A program made the position numbers and the translations under genes. A stretch of DNA of 64,000 bases from a plasmid: sequence record NZ_CP031419.1; one strand, 5' to 3'. The notes under the pieces were generated by a model. It saw only the letters and a program-made list of their open reading frames with translations. It had not been told where the DNA came from and made no database searches. Shown here piece after piece: positions 8,576-64,000 of the stretch (position 1 is the first letter of the stretch; every line of letters begins with the position of its first letter).

Positions 8576-9844
8576 TCAGTTGCTGCCGGTCAGGGTGCTG
8601 ACGTCCACGCCGAGCGCTTCGGTCATCACCCGGGCGTAGACCGCCTTGTGCCGGGCCAGCGCCGCGTCCACCGTGGCCGTGGACCGGCCTGCGGAACGTG
8701 CGTTGTGACGCAGCTCCTCGAGCCTCTTGCCCGCCTTGCCGAGCTTGTGGTTGGCCTCTTTGATCGCCCACTGCGACAACGCCTCTCGCGATTGACCCGC
8801 CTTGGCGTCGAGCTGGGCGGCCATCTCGGCAATGGCGTCGGACAGGTCCATCGCCTCCCGCGCGTCGGGGTTGACCAGCGCGAGTACCTCCCGTTCCACG
8901 GTGGGCCGCTCGGCGACCGAGTCCCACAGCACGTGGGTGAGCATCGGCAGGTCGTTGTCGTCGACCTCGGCGCGGCCGTCGAGGAACGCCGATGCCTGGA
9001 GAAGGCGAATGGCCTGCTTCCAGCGTCGATCCGACGCCACGAGCGACTGTCGCCTCAGCGAGGTTCGCAGCTGGCAGACAGTATCGACCACCCCGTCAGG
9101 CACCGCCACGGCCGGGACGTCGATCGTGACCGCCTGCTGCAACGCCGCAAGTGTGACCGTGGTCGGCGCGGCGGCGGCCGCGGGGCTCTGGACGGCAGAA
9201 CGAATGAGGGCGGCGAAGTTCGACGGATCGGTCAGATAGCCGACCTCGAGCCGGACGAGCAGACGATCGTAGATCGCGGCGCTTTCCTCCCCGCTGGGCA
9301 GCTCGTTGGAGGCGGTGATGGCCGAGATCAGCGGGCAGCTGATCGGGGCCCCGCCGGATTCGGGGTGGTAGAGCCGTTCATTGAGGAAGGCCAGTGTCTC
9401 GTTGAGAGCACCCACCGAGCACTTGAAGATCTCGTCCATGAACGCGATATGGCAGGTCGTAGCACGTCCCTCGAACAGCTGGGTGTACCGGCCCTGGGTC
9501 AGTGCTGCCACGTCGACCGGTCCGAACATTTTCTTCGGGTCGGTGAATTTGCTCAGCAGAATCTCCCACAGCTGGGCATCGACGATCCGGCCGGTCAGCT
9601 CCCGCGCCAACTCGGATTTCGCGGTGCCGGGAGGGCCCAGGATCAGCGAGTGCTTGCCCGCAAGGATCGCTGCGACCACCGCGCGCACAACTTCGGAACG
9701 CTCGTAGAACAAGTCCGACAACTCATCGCTCACCGCCCGCAGCTTGCGCGCCGTGTCGGACGAGTCGTGCTCCACCTGCTGTTTCCCGCTCATGACCTCT
9801 CCCCGATTTAATGGGTACCCATTTAATGTGGACGACACTAGCAC
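8576..9844 (-). CDS. MoxR-family AAA+ ATPase
   Basis: Walker A GPPGTAKSELAREL and Walker B FMDEIFK. The true start may be the internal MSGKQQ. Confidence 0.8.
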   Translation of the reverse strand: MLVSSTLNGYPLNRGEVMSGKQQVEHDSSDTARKLRAVSDELSDLFYERSEVVRAVVAAILAGKHSLILGPPGTAKSELARELTGRIVDAQLWEILLSKFTDPKKMFGPVDVAALTQGRYTQLFEGRATTCHIAFMDEIFKCSVGALNETLAFLNERLYHPESGGAPISCPLISAITASNELPSGEESAAIYDRLLVRLEVGYLTDPSNFAALIRSAVQSPAAAAAPTTVTLAALQQAVTIDVPAVAVPDGVVDTVCQLRTSLRRQSLVASDRRWKQAIRLLQASAFLDGRAEVDDNDLPMLTHVLWDSVAERPTVEREVLALVNPDAREAMDLSDAIAEMAAQLDAKAGQSREALSQWAIKEANHKLGKAGKRLEELRHNARSAGRSTATVDAALARHKAVYARVMTEALGVDVSTLTGSN

Positions 9845-10320: not shown

Positions 10321-10974
10321 TTACGGTCTGAAACTTGCCGGAACGACCGGGACGAATTTCGCCTCCGGGTCGTGCTTGTCGGGCGTGCAGGCGTAGAACG
10401 GCCCCGCCGGATCGGTCAGGTTGCGCAGCAGAGGGTAGAAGAAGTCGCGGAAGTACACGGCCATGGCGGCTCCTGGCTGCACGACCGCCTCCAGCCACGA
10501 GCGGCGCAGCGACCACAGCACCGTCACCGCCTCGGGGTGCTCGTACCACTCCGAGCACCAGCAGATCGCGCCGTTGGCGGAACTGGTGGTGGAGCGAGGC
10601 AGCTTACGCTGCGCCCACTCACCGATATTGGCGATCACCCATTCCAGCAGCACGTCCATGTCGATCTGGTCCGGATCGGCCCCGTCGGGGATCGCGGCAG
10701 GCGGGGCGCTGCTGGCGCCGTCACCCGCACCGCTCGGGGCGGCCGCAGCGGGAGCCTCACCAGGGGCGGCGGAAGCGAGCCGGTCGGCCAGAACGCCGAG
10801 CGCAGTCTCGAACTCGTCGAGCCCTTGGGAGGATCGGGCGGCGGTGGCGTCGACCCGCTCCACCTTCGTGGACAACAGCCGGTGCTGGTTGCGCATCTCG
10901 ACGAGAGCTTCGCTCAGGGAGGCGACCTGGTTGCGCAGTTCTTCGACCCGCTCATCCGGCGATTCGGTGCTCAC
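10321..10974 (-). CDS. DUF4913-like protein (conjugative-element associated)
   Basis: 217 aa with a coiled-coil N-terminus and a conserved Cys/Trp-rich C-terminus (ICWCSEWYEHPEAVTVLWSLRRSW). Sits immediately downstream of the coupling protein, as in actinobacterial T4SS elements. Confidence 0.5.
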   Translation of the reverse strand: MSTESPDERVEELRNQVASLSEALVEMRNQHRLLSTKVERVDATAARSSQGLDEFETALGVLADRLASAAPGEAPAAAAPSGAGDGASSAPPAAIPDGADPDQIDMDVLLEWVIANIGEWAQRKLPRSTTSSANGAICWCSEWYEHPEAVTVLWSLRRSWLEAVVQPGAAMAVYFRDFFYPLLRNLTDPAGPFYACTPDKHDPEAKFVPVVPASFRP

Positions 10975-12698
10975 GCCGCACTCGCTTTCGCCTGCTCGTC
11001 GAGCCGCCGCCGCAGCGCCTTGGCGACCGGGTTGGCCGGGCCCAGATGCTCGATCGCGGCGTTCTGCACCTCCTTGGTGGCCTCGTCGCGGACTCGTTCG
11101 ACATCGCCCTTGTCCGGTTCGGTGTACCAGGGGATGAGGTCGATCAGCACGGGGCGCGATTCCTGCCGGATCAGCAGCGCGTTGCGCTTCTTCATCGCAG
11201 CGATCTCTTCCACGGGCATGATCGGCTCCAGCGATCCACGATCGTTGGAGGTGGTAACACCCCCGGGACCATGGGAGCGGCGCCGCTCACGAGGTTTGTA
11301 CTGTCCGACCAGGCCGGAGAGCTTGCGCAGGAACGGTTCGTCCTGCAATCCGGCGCCGAGGATGCGCACGGTGGAGGCACCCCACAGGGCGGCCGCGTCG
11401 TCCGCACCCCAGGTCGAGATCACCTGGGCTTCGGACTGGAAAATGGCGGTGACGCACATCGACTTCGACCCCAGGTGTGACGCCAGCTTCGGCAACCGTT
11501 TGATCTTGCAGATGTTGGCGCACTCGTCGAGAACGAGAGTCAAGGGTGGATCGACCCGGCCGCCATGAGCCGAGGCGGCGAGGTCGCCGAGTTCGAATAT
11601 CTTGGCGACCATCGCCGCGATCACCGCGCCGGCGGAGCCGGAACCCTCCTGGGTCATCAAGTACAGCGTCGGGGCCTTGCCGTCTTCGTAGGCGAACAGG
11701 CTCCACAAATCGAGTTCGGTGATCTTCTCCGTGGTCGGCTGCTCCCACGTGTTCGGCGGAGTGATCCAGCGCAACGTTTCTTCGTCCTGGATGCTGGCCA
11801 GCGCGGTCTGGGCCTCACCGAACACACCGCCCCGGGTCTCGGCGGGCAGGTCGAGCACCGCGGCGAAGGCGTTGGCCGCACGGCGGTTTCCGTGCTGGTG
11901 CAGGATGTCGATCGGTTTGTCCGAGTACGTGTCGATCCAATCCAGCACGTCACGCATGGTGCGGCCGCTCAGGGATGCGGCCAGCAACGCCCAGGACAGC
12001 AGGTTCTTGCCGGTCGGGGCGAAGAACGGGTCCTCGTTCTGTCCGGACCCGCCGCCGCGGTTCTCCTCGATGAAGTGCTCGGCGACCTTCTTGGCGTCTC
12101 GCAGCGTGGTGATGCCGGAAAGGATGTTCCACCACCACGTCTGGGCGGCGTAGGCGATCTGGCTGGGATCGAAGACGTAGACCGGGCCGACGTCCTTCCG
12201 CAGGGCGCCGGTCAGAATCCACAGGTCCGGCTTGTTCGAGGTGGCGATCACCGCCCCGGGTGCTGACAGAATGCGGGGGACCGCGACCGCGGAGGTCTTG
12301 TTGCTGCGCGGTCCCATCATCACGATGGTGAAGTCCTCGTAGGAGGCATACACCGACTTGCCCTTCAGACGGCCGATCAGCGGCGCCAGCTCCCGCATGG
12401 ACACGCCTTTGGCCGACTCGATCGAGGCGCGCAGGCCCACACCTCGCTCAGCAGCCTTCTTCCCGATCATGTCCGGGATCTGCTTCCTGTCGCGCAGCAA
12501 CTTCTCCGGCGTCTCGTTCGGCCATGCCTTCCACACCACCCACGCCAGCGCCGCGAGCAAAAGGCACAACAGCGCCCCCACAAGCCCGATAACCAGCCAC
12601 GACGTACCCTGCTCGTGAATGCGGTAGACGCTGTAGCAGATCCCACCGACGACCAACACCGAGATCCAAACCCACGCCAGCGCAGAGTCACCCATCAC
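10971..12698 (-). CDS. type IV secretion coupling protein (VirD4/TraG/TcpA-like)
   Basis: Two N-terminal TM helices, a degenerate Walker A (GPRSNKTS), Walker B (LVLDECANI), 575 aa. Confidence 0.7.
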   Translation of the reverse strand: MMGDSALAWVWISVLVVGGICYSVYRIHEQGTSWLVIGLVGALLCLLLAALAWVVWKAWPNETPEKLLRDRKQIPDMIGKKAAERGVGLRASIESAKGVSMRELAPLIGRLKGKSVYASYEDFTIVMMGPRSNKTSAVAVPRILSAPGAVIATSNKPDLWILTGALRKDVGPVYVFDPSQIAYAAQTWWWNILSGITTLRDAKKVAEHFIEENRGGGSGQNEDPFFAPTGKNLLSWALLAASLSGRTMRDVLDWIDTYSDKPIDILHQHGNRRAANAFAAVLDLPAETRGGVFGEAQTALASIQDEETLRWITPPNTWEQPTTEKITELDLWSLFAYEDGKAPTLYLMTQEGSGSAGAVIAAMVAKIFELGDLAASAHGGRVDPPLTLVLDECANICKIKRLPKLASHLGSKSMCVTAIFQSEAQVISTWGADDAAALWGASTVRILGAGLQDEPFLRKLSGLVGQYKPRERRRSHGPGGVTTSNDRGSLEPIMPVEEIAAMKKRNALLIRQESRPVLIDLIPWYTEPDKGDVERVRDEATKEVQNAAIEHLGPANPVAKALRRRLDEQAKASAA

Positions 12699-15092: not shown

Positions 15093-16579
15093 CTCTGCGC
15101 GGCGCTACGGGAAAGTCCGGCGGTCGGCTCGATGCCGTAGCCGAGGCTCGTTGCAAACGCGGCGGCCTGTGCGCCGCGTGCCCGCCGGAACTGCAACTTG
15201 GAGGCGCTGACTCGATCCTCGATGTCGGCGCAGGCCGCGGCCAAGGTGTCCTCGTTTCGCACCGTGGTGGTGATGTACATGGTGAACTGGCCCAGCCCGG
15301 CGCCCATGGACTCTTCCTGAGCGGCCTTGCGGGCGCGGACCCGATCGTCGTACTCGCGCTGGGTCTCGTCCTTCTTCGTCTTCGCATTCCAGATCCGGCG
15401 CAGGGTGCCGGCCTGGATCTCGCGCTCGACGATCTCGGCGGCCTGGGCGGCGGTGTAGGGGCGGTACACCAGCGAGAAGCGCCGGTAGTACTTACCTGGG
15501 CTGACCAGCTTGAGCAAGATGTGGTGTCGCACCACCCCGCTCGGCGGAGCCTTGAAAACCCAGGTCACCGAGTATCCGCTGTCGTGGTAGTAGACATCCT
15601 TGGTCGACTCGGTTCGCAGCGGCCCCGCGTCGGACCAGGACAGCAACTCGTCGGCCTCCTCGTCGGGAGCGTCGGAGAGGAACACCCGGATGGCGGGGTC
15701 GAAAGCGGCGCGGATGTTGCGGATGACCCCCGCCGTGCTGGCCCGCTCGGTCACCGTCGCCCCGGCCGCAGCGAGTGCGGACTCGATGCGCGGCAACCAG
15801 CGCACCACTTCGGCCGCCCCCTCCGAGAGGGTCTTCGGCTGAGGAGACGCCTTGGACAGGTCGAAATTGACTGTCACCCGCATCTGCACGTCCGCGGTGG
15901 TCGTCCGCGACTGGTTCACGACCTTCTTCATGATCGTCTTGGCCAGTTTCGGGGCGTTCCTGCCGTCGCGCTCCATCCGCGCCAGGGTGTAGGCGCGCTG
16001 GTCGACACCACCTGTGGGGGAGGACTCGCACGTAAACACCACCGAGGAGATGATGGGTGTGAAGCCCAGATCGGCGAGCCAGCTGCCGTAGTTGCGAACC
16101 CAGGCTTCGGTGTCGGCCGTGTCGGCCAGGGTTGTGCCGACAGGGGACACCTTCAGCACCGCAGACAGGATGCCGGTGCGGCGGTTCCACAGCAGGCATT
16201 GGTTGCCGCCTCGGCCGTCCTCCACCGTCAACGGCTTGAGCGGCGCCAGTACACCGGGAAGGTTTTCTCCTCGGCTGACCTCTTCGAGAACGTCGGCCGC
16301 GTGGGCGTCGCTGGCACAGCGATTAGCCCAGGCGTTGCGTACGTTCCACGCCACGTGCTGGACGACCGTGCGCCGAGAATCGCCCACAGGGACGATCGTC
16401 AGAGCCAGCACCGGGATGGCGATGAGCAATCCCATGAAGGCGAGGACCAGGCTGATGAAGGTGGTGAATGCCAGGCCAACCACGGTGGCAAGGATGATGG
16501 CCGTTCCGCTGGTCCCGAGTCGCCCCAGCCCGAACCCGGTGACTTCGCGGTAACCGCCGTAACCTCGGGTCTCGCTCAT
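15080..16579 (-). CDS. SCO6880-family-like membrane protein (VirB3/VirB4 N-terminal equivalent)
   Basis: N-terminal TM hairpin (ILATVVGLAFTTFISLVLAFMGLLIAIPVLAL), 499 aa, overlaps the ATPase gene. Confidence 0.5.
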   Translation of the reverse strand: MSETRGYGGYREVTGFGLGRLGTSGTAIILATVVGLAFTTFISLVLAFMGLLIAIPVLALTIVPVGDSRRTVVQHVAWNVRNAWANRCASDAHAADVLEEVSRGENLPGVLAPLKPLTVEDGRGGNQCLLWNRRTGILSAVLKVSPVGTTLADTADTEAWVRNYGSWLADLGFTPIISSVVFTCESSPTGGVDQRAYTLARMERDGRNAPKLAKTIMKKVVNQSRTTTADVQMRVTVNFDLSKASPQPKTLSEGAAEVVRWLPRIESALAAAGATVTERASTAGVIRNIRAAFDPAIRVFLSDAPDEEADELLSWSDAGPLRTESTKDVYYHDSGYSVTWVFKAPPSGVVRHHILLKLVSPGKYYRRFSLVYRPYTAAQAAEIVEREIQAGTLRRIWNAKTKKDETQREYDDRVRARKAAQEESMGAGLGQFTMYITTTVRNEDTLAAACADIEDRVSASKLQFRRARGAQAAAFATSLGYGIEPTAGLSRSAAQRWLA

Positions 16580-28518: not shown

Positions 28519-29696
28519 CCTCCCCGATCCCCGGCGTCGTGGCCTGGCCGGTGCTGGTCCTGTTCATCGCGGTCATCATCGGGCGCTGCTGGCTGCTGCG
28601 AGATGGCGCGGTGGACAAGCTCATCAACCGCGCGCTGGTCATTGCGCTCTTCGGACTGTTGCTGCGGGAAGCATGGTTCGAGCACATGCTGATCGCGATC
28701 CTGCCGTTCAACGATGCCGACGTCGTTCACTTCGCACGCCAGATTTCCTTCGGCTGCATCCTGTTCACCGTCTCGTGTATCTACGGCATCGCTCAACTTT
28801 GGGCAGGAGCCGACCCAGAACACACCTGGCAGCGGCAACGTCGCTACGACCTCGTCGCCCTGATATCGACCATCACCATCCTGATTGCTGGAACTCCCGC
28901 CCGGCGGGCAGACCAACTGATCGATCAAGCCCTGGGCTGGCCAGCGGTCATCGCCTGGGTTGCGTTCTATCTTCCGATCGCGGCCACCGCCCTGCTCGTT
29001 GGCCGAATCAGCATCCGCGAGTTGCGCGGCGCCGATCAGAACACCTCATGGCGAGAGCGCAGCGTATACCTCGGTGTCCTGGCCATCGCGATCGCAATCG
29101 GTGCGGACTCCGTCTTCGTCCCCGTCGTAACGGCCCTCGAAGTCGCAGCCGATCGCCCTTCGGCAGACCCCGACATGGAGGCGAAGGCTTGGACCTTCTT
29201 CGGCGCCACCGTCGCAGCAGGCGCCGTCGTAGCGGTACCGCTGATCGGCACGGTTCTGGCCCTTTCCGGGTGGGACCGCACAAGTCGCTACTGCCGCAGG
29301 CTGAAGCCGCTGTGGCGCGACCTCACCGCAGCCGTACCGGAGATCGTTCTCGCTCTGCCACAGGACCGATCCGGCCGAGTCGAGCCGGCCACCCGGCTGC
29401 ACCGGATGACGGTGGAGATCCGCGATAGCTTGCTCTACCTCAAACGCTACGGAGCCGTCGACGAAGCTGGACAAGGCGCCGACGCATACGCACGCCGCGT
29501 CGCCGCTGCTATCGCAGCCAAGAACGCTGGAGAAGCACCCCAGACCAGCCCTGCGCCTGCCGGGCGCCCTGCATTCGTCGGGGCCCGCGACCTCACCGCG
29601 GAGCTGCAACAGCTGCTCGACCTCGCCGCCGCCTGGCCCACCGCCAAGCGGCAGGCCGGCCGAACCGAGTCGCCGGACACGGCACTGACCCAGTAG
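28515..29696 (+). CDS. polytopic membrane protein (MAB_1171c/DUF6545-like putative transporter)
   Basis: About 6 TM helices then a soluble C-terminus. Commonly co-located with XRE/ImmA pairs in actinobacteria. Confidence 0.45.
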   Translation: MTSPIPGVVAWPVLVLFIAVIIGRCWLLRDGAVDKLINRALVIALFGLLLREAWFEHMLIAILPFNDADVVHFARQISFGCILFTVSCIYGIAQLWAGADPEHTWQRQRRYDLVALISTITILIAGTPARRADQLIDQALGWPAVIAWVAFYLPIAATALLVGRISIRELRGADQNTSWRERSVYLGVLAIAIAIGADSVFVPVVTALEVAADRPSADPDMEAKAWTFFGATVAAGAVVAVPLIGTVLALSGWDRTSRYCRRLKPLWRDLTAAVPEIVLALPQDRSGRVEPATRLHRMTVEIRDSLLYLKRYGAVDEAGQGADAYARRVAAAIAAKNAGEAPQTSPAPAGRPAFVGARDLTAELQQLLDLAAAWPTAKRQAGRTESPDTALTQ

Positions 29697-34085: not shown

Positions 34086-34399
34086 GGGTCCTCCCAGCTC
34101 AAGGAACGGGTCCGTCCGTCTGGAACCCTCACAACGCCAGCTGACCATGCTGGCGCAGTCCGGGCCCAGGATCTCACACACCCTGGCCACTCGGCGCAGA
34201 TCGCATTGCCTCGCACCCGGAAGAGATCATTGTGCGTTAATGTATCTAAAGAGTCTATAGACACCAACGAGGAAGGAGGCCGCTATCGAAGTGGACGCTG
34301 TGGCACACCCACGACCGTGGCCAGCAGCGATTCATCTTGGTTAACCGAAATCAGCGTGTCGCGTGCTCCGGCGCGACTCTCCATGCAAGGATGTCGCAC

Positions 34400-45903: not shown

Positions 45904-47583
45904 TCACGCCGCCGGGGTGTAGCGGTCGAGCTCTTCGCCGGTGATGGCCTCCACCAGCGCAGAGATCAAAATCTCGGCAGCGGGCGGGGTGACGGCGTTG
46001 CCGAGCTGGCGCACCCGTTGGCGCTTGTTGCCGAGCACGATGTAGTCCTTGCGGAACGCCATCGCGTCCTGGATCTCGTGCGGCTCCAACATGCGGAACC
46101 GAGTGTTCTCGATGTCGCGCTCGGTGATCATGTCGACCAGAGCGAACCGGTCGCGGGTGCTGACCGTGCCCAGCGGTTCGGTGGCGGGCCGGGCGGTGCC
46201 GGTGCTGTAGTAGGGCAGCAGCAGCGTGTTCCACAGCTCGGGCGACATCCCGGCGGGCGGCGTGACCAGGCCGTGGTGATTGCCGCTGGCGGTGACGGTG
46301 GCCAGGGCCTCGGTCACCGGACGCGCGTCCGAGGAACCGCCGCGCAGCTCGGCGACGAAGGGGAGGAACGCCACCGCCGTCTCGTTGCGGGTGGTCTGGG
46401 TGCGCAGCGGCATCGAGGCCAGCTGGGCTTCCTTGCCGTCGCGACCCTCCATCGGAATCATCAGCGGCGGCGGCACGACCAGGCCGTGGTTGGAGCCGTC
46501 GGCAACGACCGTGGCGAGGGGTTCGTTCAGCCCGATCGTGCGGGGGCGGTCCGAGCGCAGCAGCGCCAGGAACGGCTGCGGGATCGCGAGCCCGTCGTTC
46601 TCCCGGGTGGTGCGGGCGGCCATGGGCCCTGTGACCTGGGTGGCGTCGTCGCGCCAGGTTCCCCCGGCGGGGACCATCATCGGCATCATCGAGGCGTAGC
46701 GGCGCATCCCGACGCGAATGCGTTCCATGGTCTTGGGAGCCAGAGGCTTGTCCCGGTCGCCGATGCGGGTGCCCGGCAGGGTCCAGTCGATCGCGGCGGC
46801 CGCCGGGAGCGCGGGCGGCTCCACGATCGAGTTGCGGCAGCTGACGCGAGGGCAGCGGTACACGTACTGGGTGCGGTAGCGCCCCATGTCGGCATTGGGC
46901 TTCTTGAAGACCTGGAGGGCGCTCACCCACTCGTCGCAGGCCAGGCAGTACGACAACGGGCGGAGCCACTTGTTCCAGTCGGGCTCGCGGCCGAGCTTGA
47001 GATCCCAGTAGGCGACGTAGAGCCGGTCCCGGGACTGCGGGGCCGCCGGAGTGCGAACCGGCTGGGCATGGCTGGAGTTGAGGGCGATGACCTTGACCCC
47101 GTAGCCCAGGGCCCGGATCTCGCCGATCCAGCGGTTCCACTGGTCCCACTGACGGACCTCGACCACGTTCTCCACGACCCCGGCGCGGACCCGGCCACCG
47201 CGCTCGATCACGCCGCGCAGGTACATCGGGACCTCTTCCATCAGCGCCCTGCTGCGGTCGGCTTCCTCATCGCGCTGAAGGTCGAGGAGGTCACCTTGGA
47301 GGGTGTTGTCGTAGTCGCGCTTCTTGCCGCGCGCCGAGGACCACTGCGGGCACTCCGGCGAGGCCCAGAAGATATCGGCCACAGGCCATTTCACGATCTG
47401 TTCTTTGGCCTCTTCGGTGCTCAGGTCTCCGAGGAAGTGATCGGCCTCGGGGTAGTTGGTGGCATGGGTCTCGATGGCCTTCGACCAGTGGTTCGCCGCG
47501 CGGGTGACGCGCACACCGGGCACCTTCGATGCGCCCTGAGTGGAGCCGCCAGCGCCGCAGAACCAATCCATCAATTCGAGCAT
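45904..47583 (-). CDS. DNA (cytosine-5)-methyltransferase, orphan (no cognate endonuclease seen)
   Basis: Motif I DWFCGAGG, PC motif ASPECPQWS, ENV motif VVENVVEV. 559 aa. Confidence 0.8.
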   Translation of the reverse strand: MLELMDWFCGAGGSTQGASKVPGVRVTRAANHWSKAIETHATNYPEADHFLGDLSTEEAKEQIVKWPVADIFWASPECPQWSSARGKKRDYDNTLQGDLLDLQRDEEADRSRALMEEVPMYLRGVIERGGRVRAGVVENVVEVRQWDQWNRWIGEIRALGYGVKVIALNSSHAQPVRTPAAPQSRDRLYVAYWDLKLGREPDWNKWLRPLSYCLACDEWVSALQVFKKPNADMGRYRTQYVYRCPRVSCRNSIVEPPALPAAAAIDWTLPGTRIGDRDKPLAPKTMERIRVGMRRYASMMPMMVPAGGTWRDDATQVTGPMAARTTRENDGLAIPQPFLALLRSDRPRTIGLNEPLATVVADGSNHGLVVPPPLMIPMEGRDGKEAQLASMPLRTQTTRNETAVAFLPFVAELRGGSSDARPVTEALATVTASGNHHGLVTPPAGMSPELWNTLLLPYYSTGTARPATEPLGTVSTRDRFALVDMITERDIENTRFRMLEPHEIQDAMAFRKDYIVLGNKRQRVRQLGNAVTPPAAEILISALVEAITGEELDRYTPAA

Positions 47584-47670: not shown

Positions 47671-48019
47671 AAGTTGATCGAGGTCAAGAACTTTCTTGAC
47701 GTGTCTTTTATCGAAATTATCTGTGCGGCAACAGCTTTCGATTCTCCTGCCGACCTGGGGATCGGGGCCGCAAACGCTACCGATACAATGGATGTTTTAG
47801 ATACACTGGAAGTGTTCGAAAAGTGCCCGCTCCCCGCGTTCGCCCACGTCAACGGAGCCGGAAGGGCTCGACAACGGCGTCGGGCCCAGCGGCGAACCCG
47901 CGAGCAGACACCGATCACACGAGAACCGCTGAGCGCTCGCGCGTCTCGGACCGGCCGCATACGTCGGAACGAGGTGGAAGACTTGCGGGCGAACGAGGCG
48001 TGGCCGACGCAACCGAACG

Positions 48020-50236: not shown

Positions 50237-50572
50237 TTCGGCCGTGGCCACGCGTGTGGGATGCCGCGTCTTTGGCATACTGGCTGCGGGCCGTGGCGGG
50301 CGGCCCTACGGCCTGCTGATGCAGCGGGAGACCCCGTTGAAGAAGCGTATCGCTCCACCCGCCCACTAACATTGATGCCCTGCTGACGCTGATATGGAGC
50401 TGAACTGGGCAAATGCGGTTCTGGCTCCGGATAACTGCCATTATCCGGAGTGACACCAAAAAACACTACGGTGAGATACCCCCGCGCGGAGCACCTTTAG
50501 ATACATTAGAATAAATGGGCATGGCGGGAGCGCGATACCCGCGTCCACCAGCGGCGAACGCCGCCGGAGGAG

Positions 50573-59842: not shown

Positions 59843-60379
59843 TCAGCTCCGCACCCGTGCGGCGGCTGGCGCGCCCGCGTCGGCGGCAGCGACCCGAACC
59901 GGATCGGCAGCGGCGGACGGACCGCCGGAACCGGCTGGAGCCGGATCGGGTTGTGGGACGGCGGCGGACGGGGTGACCGGCGTGCCCGGGGAGGTCGACT
60001 CAAGTTCGGAGTCCTCCGCCGGCGGCGGAGTCAGCGGCGCTTCGGCCGCAGCGGTCGACGCACGTGAGGGGCGAGGCCGAGGCTTGGCCTTCGCCCGCTT
60101 CGCCACAGCACGGATAGCGTCGGTGGGCTTGAGTCCGATCCGTTCCAGCGCGGCCGCCTCGGCTCCGGCATTGGTGGCCGCCTCGTAGGCAGCCACCACG
60201 GCATCCTCGGCAGCTTCCTCATCGGCGATCAACCGCGCTGTCTCGGCCCGGCGCGTCTCGGACGCCTGCTGCCATTCCCCGACCTTCACCGCGAGTTCGC
60301 CGATGCGCGTCTCCATATCGTCGTCGATGACCGCCCGCCGGTACGCGGACAGAGCATCGGTCGCCATCTTCTTCGCCAT
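59843..60379 (-). CDS. hypothetical protein, first gene transcribed away from oriT
   Basis: 178 aa with a coiled-coil N-terminus and a Pro/Ala-rich tail. Confidence 0.4.
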   Translation of the reverse strand: MAKKMATDALSAYRRAVIDDDMETRIGELAVKVGEWQQASETRRAETARLIADEEAAEDAVVAAYEAATNAGAEAAALERIGLKPTDAIRAVAKRAKAKPRPRPSRASTAAAEAPLTPPPAEDSELESTSPGTPVTPSAAVPQPDPAPAGSGGPSAAADPVRVAAADAGAPAAARVRS

Positions 60380-60689
60380 GGGAAACCTCTCGTCGCTCAG
60401 CGCTCACTAATGGAGCGATCGAACCTAGTGTATCTAATGTATCTACAGAACGGAGGTGGTCAACCATGCGAACGGGAGTCGGGTGAGTGCGCGCCTTGCT
60501 CGCCGGGTGTCCCGTTCGTTCAGTCTGCGCACCGGGGCGGGCTGGGGTCGGGCGCCCGCAGCCTCGATCCAGCCCCCCTCGTTCACGGCACCGGCCTCGT
60601 CGCGTATCGCGCCCGCCCAGCGAACGAAAGCGTTTTCCACGTGGAGCTCACCGTGAGCCGCAGCGTGGCTGACCAGCCTTTTCCGGTGA

Positions 60690-60784
60690 GCAAGATATCC
60701 CAAAACCCCGGGGTTTTGGGTTGCGCCCGGGGACGGGCGCGAGACACACTCGAAGTGATTCGAGTGTGTCTAAAGCCTCCAGAG
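60690..60784. promoter_or_regulatory. oriT candidate: three consecutive perfect inverted repeats
   Basis: CCCAAAACCCCGGGGTTTTGGG (~60690-60711). GACACACTCGAAGTGATTCGAGTGTGTC (~60733-60760). CCTCCAGAGGATCTGGAGG (~60766-60784). About 115 bp upstream of mobC. Confidence 0.45.
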
Positions 60785-60898
60785 GATCTGGAGGCGCCGA
60801 TGTACCCAGACCTGCGGTCCGGCCACATCGGCTGGCCCGGCAGGCGACTGCCGGCCCTGCGAGCGCACCAGTGCGCCCGGTAGGCGAAAGGACGTGAA

Positions 60899-61318
60899 GT
60901 GCCCCCGAAGAGCAGACAGGGCCATCGGCCTCACTCCGTCGAGAAGCGGACGCGCCGCCATGAGGCGCTGTTCGCACCCGCGGAGTGGGCACTAGTGGCC
61001 GCCGCGGCGGCCACTGTCGGGCTGAAGCCTGGCGCCTTCATCGCCAAGGCAGCCGTTGGTGCCGCGCGTGCGTTCGCCGCACAGCGCAATGGCTCAGCCG
61101 TCCGCACCAGCGGCCAGGTGGAGATCCTCATCGCCGAGGTTCGGGAGTTGCGCCGACTGCTGGGCAACGTGGCCGGGAATGTGAACGATGTCGCCAAGCA
61201 CGCGAACTCCACCGGCGAACTCGGCCAGAACGCGGACGCGGTGCTCGCCTACACCCGCAAGATCAACGGCCGCATCGACACATGGTTGGTTGAACAGCTT
61301 CGGCACGGTGCGCTGTGA
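60899..61318 (+). CDS. mobC: MobC-family mobilisation (relaxosome accessory) protein
   Basis: LLGNVAGNVNDVAKHANSTG matches the MobC motif (L...GNNLNQIAR.AN). Overlaps the relaxase start. Confidence 0.6.
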   Translation: MPPKSRQGHRPHSVEKRTRRHEALFAPAEWALVAAAAATVGLKPGAFIAKAAVGAARAFAAQRNGSAVRTSGQVEILIAEVRELRRLLGNVAGNVNDVAKHANSTGELGQNADAVLAYTRKINGRIDTWLVEQLRHGAL

Positions 61319-62946
61319 TCGGCAAGGCGATCAGGGGATGGGACGGGCAGCGGCTCGTGCGGTACCTGTTCTCGAAGGGCAAGTACAACGAGCACACCAA
61401 CCCCACCGTGATCGCAGCATGGCAATCCGACCCCGACGCCCTTCAACCGGTATGGGTCGGCCCCGACGACTGCGACTTCGCGCCCGGTGAGATCGGCAAA
61501 CTCGCCAACCAGGTAACCGCCCTGTCGGATGCGATCGGGCTGCCCACCGAACAGCCCGAGCCCGGCCAGCCGGGCTACACCAAGCACGGCTACATCTGGC
61601 ACCTGCCGGTGGCCATCGGCGCCGAAGACGGGGAACTCGGCCACGACACCTGGCGGCGCATCGCCGAGGACATGCTGCACGAGACCGGGATCGCGAAAGC
61701 GGGAGACGCCGGGGCGTGCCGGTGGATCGCGGTGCACCACGGCAAGTCCGTCGACGGCAACGACCACATTCACATCGCCGCGGTCCTCGTGCGCGCCGAC
61801 ACCGGCAAACGCTTCTACCCCGACAACGATTGGAAAGCCGTACGCCGCGTCGCCCGGCGCTGGGAACAAGCTCTCGGTCTGCGAATGACCGCCATCAACG
61901 ACCCGTCGGCCGTACCCACCCCGACGCGCGGGGAACAGGAAAAGGCGAAGCGCCGCCACGCCGCCGGCGACGACGGCATGCTGCGAGCGACACCAGGTGC
62001 CGCGGCACGGGTACAGCTGCGGCAGATGATCACCGAGACCGCCGCCGTCGCGACGAGCGCCGACGAATTCGTTGCCCGGCTCCGCGACGCGGGCATGCTC
62101 ATCGACTTCAAGTACGACGCCATCGGGCAGATCAAGGGATGGGCGGTCGCCGCTCCCGGGGACGTATCGGCGAGAACCGGCGAGCCCATCTACTTCGCGC
62201 CCAGCCGGCACTTGGGCGCAGATATGTCTTGGCCGCGGATCACCGCCCGCTGGTCGGCCTCCGTGCCCGGCCGTCCCGGCGCCGCGCGGGAAGCGGCCGC
62301 CACCGACACAGCACGCGAGCCGCATGCAGTGCTGGCCGACAGCGCTGAGCGGGTCCGGTCGGTCACCACCGCAGTGCGCGGTGGCCGCGCCGACGTGGCG
62401 ACCGTGGCCCGCGAGTTGCAGGACGTCATCAGTAGTTGGGCATCCATCGCCGACGGTGCGGCGCGCCAGGGCCCGCTCTCCCGGGCCGCCTGGGTCTACG
62501 ACCGCGCCGCCCGCACCCGGCGCGGTCTGGCCGCCGTTCCCGCCGGGCAACTCGCCGCCGAACTGCGTGAGGTCTCGCGCGGACTCGCTGCGGTCCGAAT
62601 GCTGTCCGGTCGCGGCCTGCAACGAGATCCGAGCCTGCAACTCGGGCTCGCTATCGCCGAACTGTTGCTGGAGATCGCCGCATGGCACCAGCAGAACCAG
62701 CGCATCGCTGCCGCGCGCAGTGCCCGCGAAGCCGCCGGCCTGGTGCGCGCGCACGGGGAGGCCACCGGTGCCGTCCCGGGCCAGCTCCCGCCGCGGCGCG
62801 CCCCGGCGGGCACCGGGCACACGCCCACCGTCACAGCACACCCCGGTCCGGCCGCGCGGCCGGGCGAAGGCCGCCGCGAACTGCCTGCGGTGCGCGGCGT
62901 CCGTGAACTGCCGTCCGGCCCAACAAGGAAGGAACACCGACGATGA
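61315..62946 (+). CDS. relaxase/mobilisation nuclease (HUH)
   Basis: HUH motif HHGKSVDGNDHIHIAAV. N-terminal relaxase domain. 543 aa. Confidence 0.75.
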   Translation: MIGKAIRGWDGQRLVRYLFSKGKYNEHTNPTVIAAWQSDPDALQPVWVGPDDCDFAPGEIGKLANQVTALSDAIGLPTEQPEPGQPGYTKHGYIWHLPVAIGAEDGELGHDTWRRIAEDMLHETGIAKAGDAGACRWIAVHHGKSVDGNDHIHIAAVLVRADTGKRFYPDNDWKAVRRVARRWEQALGLRMTAINDPSAVPTPTRGEQEKAKRRHAAGDDGMLRATPGAAARVQLRQMITETAAVATSADEFVARLRDAGMLIDFKYDAIGQIKGWAVAAPGDVSARTGEPIYFAPSRHLGADMSWPRITARWSASVPGRPGAAREAAATDTAREPHAVLADSAERVRSVTTAVRGGRADVATVARELQDVISSWASIADGAARQGPLSRAAWVYDRAARTRRGLAAVPAGQLAAELREVSRGLAAVRMLSGRGLQRDPSLQLGLAIAELLLEIAAWHQQNQRIAAARSAREAAGLVRAHGEATGAVPGQLPPRRAPAGTGHTPTVTAHPGPAARPGEGRRELPAVRGVRELPSGPTRKEHRR

Positions 62947-64000
62947 ACCAGCCGGTCATTGAAACGCCCGTGATGGGCATCCCTCGCGAGGACACCATGC
63001 GCATGGCACTGGCAGCACGCACGCTGTCGGGAGTGCTGAGGCAGCTACGGGAACGGCGGGGCCGCTCCGCCTGGGACGACGCCGAGAACGCCGCCCGCAA
63101 GAACGCGGTCCTCGACCGCCACACGGTCAACCGATTCAGCCGTGCCGACGCCGAGGAATGGAACACTGCGGAAAGGGAAGGTCGCATCCGAGCCGAACGG
63201 CACCCGGATACCGGCATGACAATTCGTGTGGCCCCACTCTCGCGCGGCCGATTCGGGGTGCAAGCCGGATGGGAGGACAACCACGCCGAGGCAGTGTTCG
63301 GCTCCGAGGATCTTGCCGCCCGGGTGGCCGACTGGCTGCGAGCCGACGGCTCAGCCGATGCTGTCGACGATCTACGCCGCAATGTCGAGGACATGCACGC
63401 CACGTCCCGGCCACGGCAGCAACGGACTCTCCGAGACATCGAGCTCGCCGAGGCCCGCAAATGGGCACAAGAGAACGATGCCGACTGGTACCGCTGGTGG
63501 GAGTTGAGCTACACCAACGCCGACACCATCGATGGACGCCGCCTCGACGAGGCCGAGATCATCAACAAGTGGGTCGACGCCACCGGCGGCACCACCCGCA
63601 GCGCCGTCGGCGTGGCCCGGCGCTGGCTGGCCGAACACGATCCGGAGTGGACCAAGAACTGGGTGGCCGAATACGACAACTGCGACACACGCGACGGACG
63701 CCGCAGCCTCGAAGCTGAGATCGTTCGCCGATGGCGCGCCCAGTCTCGCGCTGGGCGTGGACGTGGCGGAGCCGGCCAGGACCAGGGCGCTGACGCAGGT
63801 GCCGCGGAACAGGGCAGCGGTCCGCAGGACCAGCGCACTCCGACCCCACTCGCAGACCGACTGCGGGGGCGAGTGCCTGATCGTGTTCTCGATGATCCGC
63901 GTTGGCATGTCGCCGAGGACCAGTTTGCTGTGCTCACCTCGCAGGGCGCCGACCCGGACACCCTCATCGAATCCGTTGCCGCGATCGACTTCAACAACGG
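62943..64000 (+). CDS. partial hypothetical protein with internal tandem repeat (runs off right edge)
   Basis: ATG at ~62943 overlaps the relaxase stop (ATGA). Manual translation gives MNQPVIETPVMGIPRED... and stays open to position 64000. It is absent from the ORF track because no stop lies in the window. Repeat units W..EY.N.DT.DGRR..EAEI...W occur twice. Confidence 0.45.
   Translation, partial: MNQPVIETPVMGIPREDTMRMALAARTLSGVLRQLRERRGRSAWDDAENAARKNAVLDRHTVNRFSRADAEEWNTAEREGRIRAERHPDTGMTIRVAPLSRGRFGVQAGWEDNHAEAVFGSEDLAARVADWLRADGSADAVDDLRRNVEDMHATSRPRQQRTLRDIELAEARKWAQENDADWYRWWELSYTNADTIDGRRLDEAEIINKWVDATGGTTRSAVGVARRWLAEHDPEWTKNWVAEYDNCDTRDGRRSLEAEIVRRWRAQSRAGRGRGGAGQDQGADAGAAEQGSGPQDQRTPTPLADRLRGRVPDRVLDDPRWHVAEDQFAVLTSQGADPDTLIESVAAIDFNN

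Follow-up and report, generated by a model that had tools for sequence, protein, structure and literature searches.

A hairpin array upstream of mobC as a probable RP4-like origin of transfer in Nocardia plasmids

We analysed 64,000 nucleotides (64 kb, in the following called the window) of a Nocardia plasmid (sequence record NZ_CP031419.1), in which an array of stem-loops lies upstream of the genes for a MobC-like relaxosome accessory protein and a relaxase. With a probability of about 0.85 this hairpin cluster is the origin of transfer (oriT) of a conjugative or mobilisable plasmid of the type IV secretion system (T4SS) type. The nick quite likely falls within a short invariant box that adjoins the first hairpin, on the minus strand. 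Since the architecture, the gene geometry and the relaxase motifs fit, the site would belong to the RP4-like (MOBP-like) functional class. The surrounding region (60380-63000) is 98-99% identical to N. cyriacigeorgica CP026745, N. farcinica pNF1 and CP133581, and the type assigned to these plasmids in PLSDB is MOBP.

The array consists of seven abutting stem-loops (H1-H7, Table 1), which occupy 181 bp (60699-60879) and end 20 bp short of the mobC start. The palindrome of H1 is present as a single copy in the window, even when three mismatches are permitted, and neither a palindrome search nor a fold scan of the window returned a second copy of the hairpins. Folding of the single-stranded DNA between 60680 and 60900 provided energies of -72.6 kcal/mol for the plus strand and -80.8 kcal/mol for the minus strand, compared to about -41 ± 3.4 for shuffled sequences. 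With respect to 200 dinucleotide shuffles this corresponds to z-scores of -9.0 and -11.8, respectively. Among 1277 overlapping 200-nt segments of the window the hairpin region ranked first in stability, at a G+C content (0.665) below that of the runner-up segments. The TTGC in front of H2 (60721-60724) is able to pair with the GCAA (60690-60693) located in the box beyond H1. In the predicted folds this pairing is seen as GCAAG/CTTGC and lengthens H1 beyond an ATAT bulge.

An earlier reading based on the letters alone (the sequence-only reading) had described three perfect inverted repeats at 60690-60784, about 115 bp upstream of a mobC gene that overlaps the relaxase gene. All three repeats are present (H1, H3 and H4), and the 22-bp size of the palindrome was correct. 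The arms given as 12 and 8 bp measured 13 and 9 bp, however, and the repeats span 60699-60795, such that the right end had been set about 10 bp too far left. The distance to mobC was approximate, with 104 bp separating the third hairpin from the GTG at 60899. The gene overlap was confirmed, as the mobC stop and the relaxase start share 61315-61318. While a hairpin cluster indeed exists, three was too low a count, since the further stem-loops H2, H5, H6 and H7 had been overlooked.

The box next to H1 is an 11-mer, GAGCAAGATAT, which occurs only once in the window. For comparison we took the sequences that precede mobC at 15 related loci, comprising eight Nocardia genomes as well as Nocardia, Rhodococcus and Gordonia plasmids, whose relaxases are 44-99% identical to that of the window. 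In 14 of the 15 loci the exact box was found, directly followed, as in the window, by an inverted repeat with arms YCYAAAA/TTTTRGR. The exception is an N. amamiensis contig in which the entire site is deleted. There, a recombinase gene fragment (residues 10-66) abuts the mobC start and the nick box as well as all hairpins are gone (L007:2425-2595), so that this locus is an apparent oriT deletion derivative. Altogether the box is invariant in 16 mobC-linked loci and in five relaxase-less plasmids, and at every H1-type site examined in Nocardia, Rhodococcus, Gordonia and Prescottella it is unchanged and always abuts the inverted repeat. The centre of H1 differs by lineage yet stays self-complementary (CCCC/GGGG, GTGG/CCAC, CCGG/CCGG, GTG-TT-CAC, CCCATGGG).

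The same box is also found beside other repeats. Plasmid pRErm46 of Rhodococcus (Prescottella) equi is experimentally conjugative and encodes a MOB-P relaxase, MobC, a T4SS, a cutinase and a TraG-like coupling protein; an oriT is not defined in the paper describing it and is mentioned nowhere there (PMC6794481). It shares with the window plasmid the mobC-relaxase gene family, the cutinase gene and the TraG-like coupling protein (Table 1), and the order of box (GAGCAAGATAG), inverted repeat, two more hairpins and mobC. It differs in having about three hairpins instead of seven and in its nick-proximal repeat: in pRErm46 and in CP054210 the box adjoins the unrelated inverted repeat AACTTAGG-TGC-CCTAAGTT, about 125 bp upstream of mobC, and the relaxases are only 28-29% identical to that of the window. 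At least 20 other plasmids of Rhodococcus and Prescottella also have the box together with the pRErm46-type repeat. Pseudarthrobacter (typed conjugative, MPF_T), Micrococcus, Streptomyces, Micromonospora and a plasmid with the label B. subtilis have variants of the box (GAGCAAGCTA, GAGCGAGCTA, CAGCGAGTTA and GAGCAAGTTG; consensus GAGCRAGMTA) 96-130 bp upstream of mobC, with an inverted repeat beginning 1-4 nt after each of them. Over all the more distant plasmids, which include pRErm46 and represent five further genera, the distance to mobC ranges from about 100 to 210 bp. A variant is also present in pNF2, which besides its H1-type site carries a second mobC and a second relaxase gene (621 aa; L002:4339-6706) with an own variant box GGGAGCGAGCTAACG and repeat GGTGCACCAATGGTGCACC upstream (L002:4009-4060). 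This plasmid thus has two oriT-like sites. A short box that stays constant beside an inverted repeat that varies, with the orientation to mobC fixed across several actinobacterial orders, is indicative of an oriT nick region.

A metagenome scan with the pattern GAGCAAGATATNCNAAAA yielded the palindrome in none of at least 120 loci, all matches being due to chance. In the literature searched, which was also queried with the box in both orientations, we found no published oriT or nick definition for the Nocardia/Rhodococcus/pRErm46 family. A second box-like site within the window (15498-15540, GGGCTGACCAGC-TT-GAGCAAGATGT-GGTGTCGCACCAC) is reminiscent of the oriT, with a similar left flank, nick box and short inverted repeat. 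We set it aside as probably a coding coincidence: it is located inside a minus-strand T4SS gene of the SCO6880 family and is missing from the Rhodococcus orthologues.

The genes next to the array are those expected at an oriT. For the mobC product the Pfam NikA-like (ribbon-helix-helix, RHH) model scored 23.6 bits, below its cut-off of 27, and orthologues in relatives are annotated MobC. A BLASTP comparison of MobC with TraJ was not significant. An alignment of the relaxase with relatives and the IncP TraI shows Y17 and H142...H151-I-H153-I-A to be invariant, which provides the N-terminal tyrosine and the HxH motif. A sequence search of the PDB with the relaxase returned no match. The left neighbour gene (59843-60379) is divergent, which places the hairpins in a divergent intergenic region rather than at the end of a transcription unit. 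An intrinsic terminator was considered and rejected, as H2-H7 are not followed by a T-run and the flanking genes diverge.

For MOBP origins the consensus 5'-(C/T)ATCCTG(C/T)-3' has been described, with the cut after the G and an inverted repeat directly 5' of it (PMC3772185). The minus strand of our site reads 5'-CCCAAAACCCCGGGGTTTTGGG-ATATCTTG-CTCACC-3'. Here TATCTTGC matches the MOBP sequence TATCCTGC at 7 of 8 positions and at 5 of 6 within the hexamer; variants of the nick core in the wider family are TAGCTTGC and TAACTCGC. H1 ends at 60699 and is followed by the 8 nt ATATCTTG up to the predicted nick, which is the repeat-to-nick spacing of a MOBP oriT. We predict the cut between 60691 and 60690 of the minus strand, i.e. 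opposite the strand on which mobC and the relaxase gene are read. The sequences spanning it are 5'-GGGGTTTTGGGATATCTTGCTCACCGG-3' and, on the minus strand, 5'-CCCAAAACCCCGGGGTTTTGGGATATCTTGCTCACCGG-3'. The sequence-only reading had proposed an oriT as well, with the hairpins as its diagnostic feature and a nick just 3' of one of them. The oriT itself gains support from the invariant box and H1 at mobC across plasmids, and comparison also favours a nick beside H1, but on the other strand, with the cut predicted on the minus strand, 8 nt 3' of H1. The diagnostic element is the invariant 11-mer at 60688-60698, which had gone unnoticed.

The layout corresponds closely to the oriT of RP4/RK2 (IncP-1, TraI and TraJ, MOBP11), where inverted repeat, 8-nt spacer and nick follow each other in the same manner (with ^ for the cut, CTATCCTG^C in RP4 and ATATCTTG^C here). 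On the IncP plasmid PB5, which has the RP4 nick region, traJ and traI lie opposite to the nicked strand on the side of the repeat, while traK-traM are found beyond the nick on the nicked strand. The window shows the same order of relaxase gene and mobC on the opposite strand, hairpins, H1, box and minus-strand genes. The far-side genes are read away from the oriT on the nicked strand, like the leader genes traK-traM. As in RP4 the inverted repeat is situated between the nick and the accessory-protein gene, and the tyrosine and HxH motifs of the relaxase align with TraI. Provided that the predicted strand is correct, the nicked strand would be the template strand of the relaxase operon and the site intergenic, as for MOBP systems. 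The site differs from RP4 by a single transition within the core hexamer, by its seven stem-loops, where RP4 has one inverted repeat, and by an actinobacterial host with a mycolate envelope.

Two further origins are similar in part. In R64 (RHH protein NikA, relaxase NikB; MOBP12) the nick-proximal repeat is the site of the accessory protein, and the accessory gene directly precedes and overlaps the relaxase gene, as it does here. The likeness of our accessory protein to NikA is weak, lying below the Pfam cut-off. R1162/RSF1010 (MOBQ) shares the layout of repeat, 8-nt spacer and nick as well as the relaxase domain PF03432, but its core GTGCGCC^CT is not conserved at our site. A MOBQ-type oriT was therefore rejected: the window does contain AGTGCGCCC (in H7) and TTGCGCC (after H1), yet relatives have not conserved them, and we regard the resemblance of AGTGCGCCC to the MOBQ nick core as chance. 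A nick of the rolling-circle or MOBV type in a hairpin loop was rejected likewise, as the centre of H1 is its most variable part (CCGG, GGCC, CAGG, CATG, GTTC).

From these comparisons the following course of transfer may be proposed. The relaxase, aided by the RHH protein MobC, would recognise H1 together with the single-stranded box, cut after the G (60691^60690, minus strand) and remain attached to the 5' end. It would then pilot the minus strand into the recipient, such that the DNA to the left of 60690 enters first and H1-H7, mobC and the relaxase gene enter last. On the incoming strand H1 could re-form beside the box and support the closing reaction.

For the remaining hairpins we examined covariation in an alignment of eight distinct Nocardia sequences, which represent three lineages only and for which the tool warns about related sequences. 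Paired cells amounted to 91.9%, compared to 28-43% when the 3' partners were slid by 1-3 columns. Ten pairs, distributed over five of the seven helices, carried changes on both sides, and none of 500 shuffles reached the observed covariation score. The closing pair of H2 covaries from G-C to A-T, and the TTGCGC...GGGCG of this hairpin is kept in Rhodococcus, Gordonia and Prescottella. Equivalents of H3 (ACTCG/CGAGT or ACAC..GTGT hairpins) are found in Rhodococcus, Gordonia, Pseudarthrobacter, Micrococcus and pRErm46. H4 shows a compensatory change from C-G to T-A in the group of L008, and in Rhodococcus a hairpin of unrelated sequence occupies the same position. Three pairs of H5 are doubly changed, a C.C mismatch of the window in H6 is a T-A pair in relatives, and H7 has kept its pairing but not its sequence in L008 and L013. 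Distant loci cannot be aligned beyond H3; each of them nevertheless folds better than its own shuffles (z-scores of -2.2 to -13), with 3-5 hairpins.

Because both sequence and pairing of H2 and H3 are kept across genera, these hairpins are most likely binding sites of the relaxosome protein MobC. Within the array only H1, and probably H2 and H3, belong to the family-wide oriT core. H4-H7 are a Nocardia-specific expansion in which only the pairing is kept. They could act as stem-loops either of the mobC leader RNA or of the single strand that is transferred. By analogy, a single-strand priming or promoter device could be considered rather than an mRNA leader. Like the F Frpo and the ssi sites, H4-H7 form a run of stable stem-loops from one DNA strand beside the oriT. 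The known sites of this kind belong to the leading region, while H2-H7 would be the last to enter, and the likeness is one of arrangement.

A number of observations weigh against an RP4-like oriT with a minus-strand nick. The strict MOBP hexamer is missed by one transition (ATCTTG instead of ATCCTG). The BLASTP comparison of the relaxase with the IncP TraI was not significant, such that the likeness is confined to the Pfam domain and to motifs that align. The NCBIfam TraI/MobA(P) model gave 22.9 against a cut-off of 250. The H1-type copy of pNF2 lies 280 bp downstream of the 621-aa relaxase gene and is inverted relative to it. In the literature searched no nicking or mobilisation experiment on this oriT family was found. 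Moreover, the hairpin loops contain 137 purines versus 52 pyrimidines on the plus strand and are G-rich in every lineage, which fits the folding of a mobC-sense RNA better than that of the predicted transferred strand. A wobble test yielded a weak lean towards the minus strand, with about 6 events of A.C on the plus strand (G.T on the minus strand) versus 4-5 of G.T on the plus strand. H2-H7 might be a structured 5' leader of the mobC-relaxase mRNA, involved in stability or attenuation and equipped with GNRA-like loops, with the oriT confined to box and H1. On the mobC-sense strand the loops GGGA, GTGA, GGA and GCGA (GGGG, GTGG and GCGG in relatives) are indeed rich in purines, the hairpins take up the entire stretch from the box to the ribosome-binding site, and their number varies by genus from 3 to 7 while box and first repeat are constant. 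Also, CAAGAT within the box has A2 and T6 of a -10 hexamer. However, a promoter scan detected no plus-strand promoter-like site, only a minus-strand one for the divergent gene, and an Rfam E-value scan of 60300-61000 gave no match. The family-wide sequence of H3 rather resembles a protein site, the invariant loop of H5 takes the stable C-GCA-G form when read on the minus strand, the A.C mismatches on the plus strand slightly outnumber the G.T pairs there, and small plasmids without mobC still keep downstream hairpins. In addition, the minus strand of the window folds slightly better than the plus strand. Altogether we consider an mRNA leader possible but unlikely.

The remaining alternatives concern the box and H1 themselves. 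A nick on the plus strand 3' of H1, at TTGCGCC (MOBQ-like, cf. AAGTGCGCC^CT of R1162) or at the AGTGCGCCC of H7, would send mobC and the relaxase gene into the recipient first. It could draw on the two copies of TGCGCCCGG (60722-60730 and 60872-60880), on the TTGCGC that follows H1 at most H1-type sites and on the PF03432 domain, which is common to MOBP and MOBQ relaxases. We judge it improbable: pNF2, pREC2, L017 and every site with the second type of repeat lack TTGCGCC after the first repeat, L008 and L013 have not kept the H7 copy, and the sole invariant sequence is the box on the opposite side of H1, whose GCAA by pairing partly explains the conservation of TTGC. That box and H1 primarily serve a tyrosine recombinase, as attB or resolution site, is suggested by related elements inserted at 60680-60684 in at least five plasmids and by the left ends of these elements (AGTYMRRCAAC), which resemble the GGTGAGCAAG of the box. 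Still, the crossover falls outside the invariant 11-mer, and box and repeat are kept upstream of mobC, always in fixed orientation, in many plasmids and genera without a recombinase module, so that this function appears highly improbable as the primary one. Least probable of all are replication-origin iterons, single-strand origins or generic intergenic hairpins and terminators. The units of pREC2, pN30 and pKNR01 precede repA by 400-760 bp, and in these small plasmids a role in replication is conceivable. It would leave the linkage to mobC in large plasmids unexplained, where the site is found at mobC and not at rep despite unrelated replicons. Two blastn searches returned no Mycobacterium record and hence gave no indication of the unit in pAL5000-family plasmids, the family being typified in Mycobacterium. 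T-tracts and convergent genes are absent, the only terminator-like call being the A4/T4 tract of H1, and the window contains no other copy of the hairpins.

The junction next to the predicted nick is itself used by mobile elements. A family of small tyrosine-recombinase elements inserts there, at a distance of 8-12 nt on the 3' side of the predicted nick. At least five Nocardia plasmids or genomes carry such an insertion (pNF1, L001:1-3000; pNF2, L002:640-4008; CP086600, L028; CP086602; L009, 34-2373), while the junction is empty in the window. In pNF1 a module of 3.35 kb interrupts window-like flanks and encodes a tyrosine recombinase, a helix-turn-helix (HTH) protein and a 540-aa protein, the C-terminal half of which resembles proteins annotated integrase. 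A 100% identical module is found in pNF2 at the same distance from an H1 site that is 93.6% identical; as the flank differs, this insertion was independent. At this junction CP086600, CP086602 and N. salmonicida carry diverged alleles, and in CP086600 the 540-aa gene is split by a Tn7-like/chaperone insertion of about 22 kb. The junctions read ...CCTTTTC^AGTYMRRCAAC for attL and ...TTTCC^GGTGAGCAAG for attR (^ here marking the crossover), and the element genes face the oriT. Every insertion leaves box and H1 whole, which sets the left limit of the functional oriT at about 60684. It is tempting, though doubtful, to regard the nucleotides just 3' of the nick as a dedicated landing pad, from which the elements enter the recipient first and hitch-hike on conjugation ('oriT-hunting'). 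If this were true, the genes facing the oriT would have the incoming strand as their template strand.

Box and H1-type repeat also occur without any relaxase gene. We found them in the small plasmids pREC2 (3.6 kb; L020), pN30 (5.4 kb; L021) and pKNR01 (4.4 kb; L022), which carry replication genes only, and in the relaxase-less P. equi element IME2287 (L023). The relaxase-less carriers hold 1-3 box-repeat units; in small Rhodococcus plasmids 2-3 units are arranged in tandem, with the same box and different repeats. pREC2, pN30, pKNR01 and IME2287 are probably oriT-only hitchhikers, and tandem units with differing repeats are candidates for mobilisation by several helpers. We predict that the first inverted repeat, and not the box, sets which helper mobilises a given carrier. 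IME2287 was not co-transferred with pRErm46 (0 of 90 transconjugants, PMC10669575). Given that IME2287 has the H1-type repeat and pRErm46 the other type, this single negative result is in agreement with a specificity set by the repeat.

Some other features of the plasmid were recorded along the way. An A+T-rich 13-mer, TCTAATGTATCTA, has six copies in the window at up to 2 mismatches, where 0.05 would be expected, mainly in promoter regions. In Gordonia plasmids an exact copy precedes the divergent gene that adjoins the oriT. The 13-mer probably serves as operator for a regulator that acts plasmid-wide. Further genes encode a C5 cytosine methyltransferase (45904-47583, minus strand), a MoxR-type AAA ATPase adjoining a DUF6744 protein (8576-9844, minus strand) and a cytochrome P450 (29705-31126, plus strand).

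Table 1. Positions of the putative oriT elements and of associated features in the window (^ marks the predicted cut).
Feature	Position	Strand	Description
Crossover point, attB core TTTCC	60680-60684		empty in the window; used by a tyrosine-recombinase element family
Predicted nick box	60688-60698	-	plus strand GAGCAAGATAT; minus strand ATATCTTG^CTC
H1, nick-proximal inverted repeat	60699-60720		22-bp perfect palindrome CCCAAAACCCCGGGGTTTTGGG; conserved arms YCYAAAA/TTTTRGR, variable centre
H2	60723-60740		GCGCCCG-GGGA-CGGGCGC
H3	60742-60771		13-bp arms AGACACACTCGAA (60742-60754) and TTCGAGTGTGTCT (60759-60771); GTGA loop; (G)ACACTCG motif kept family-wide
H4	60775-60795		9-bp arms GCCTCCAGA (60775-60783) and TCTGGAGGC (60787-60795); GGA loop
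H5	60796-60832		imperfect 17-bp stem; invariant TGC loop (GCA on minus strand)
H6	60834-60857		10-bp stem, GCGA loop; found by folding
H7	60860-60879		8-bp stem; contains AGTGCGCCC
mobC-like relaxosome accessory protein, 139 aa	60899-61318	+	GTG start; AAAGGA ribosome-binding site 60887-60892
Relaxase, 543 aa	61315-62946	+	PF03432 (MobA/VirD2), 32.1 bits, above the cut-off of 24.6
Type IV coupling protein (VirD4/TraG-type)	10971-12698	-	Pfam TraG-D_C, T4SS-DNA_transf, TrwB_AAD_bind
Copies of TCTAATGTATCTA	60433-60445, 50498-50510(-), 60424-60436, 47798-47810(-), 34236-34248, 28771-28783		

The oriT proposed here would be an ordinary kind of element from a previously unmapped family and does not overturn the current understanding of conjugation; the seven-hairpin array and the recombinase landing pad are its two unusual features. 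It provides a searchable oriT signature, GGAGCRAGMTA followed by an inverted repeat about 100-210 bp upstream of mobC, that covers clinically or environmentally relevant plasmids of Nocardia, Rhodococcus/Prescottella, Gordonia, the Arthrobacter group and Streptomyces. Current tools often call these plasmids non-mobilisable, and the literature searched contained no mapped oriT among them. The signature additionally flags pREC2, pN30, pKNR01 and IME2287 as elements that probably carry an oriT only.

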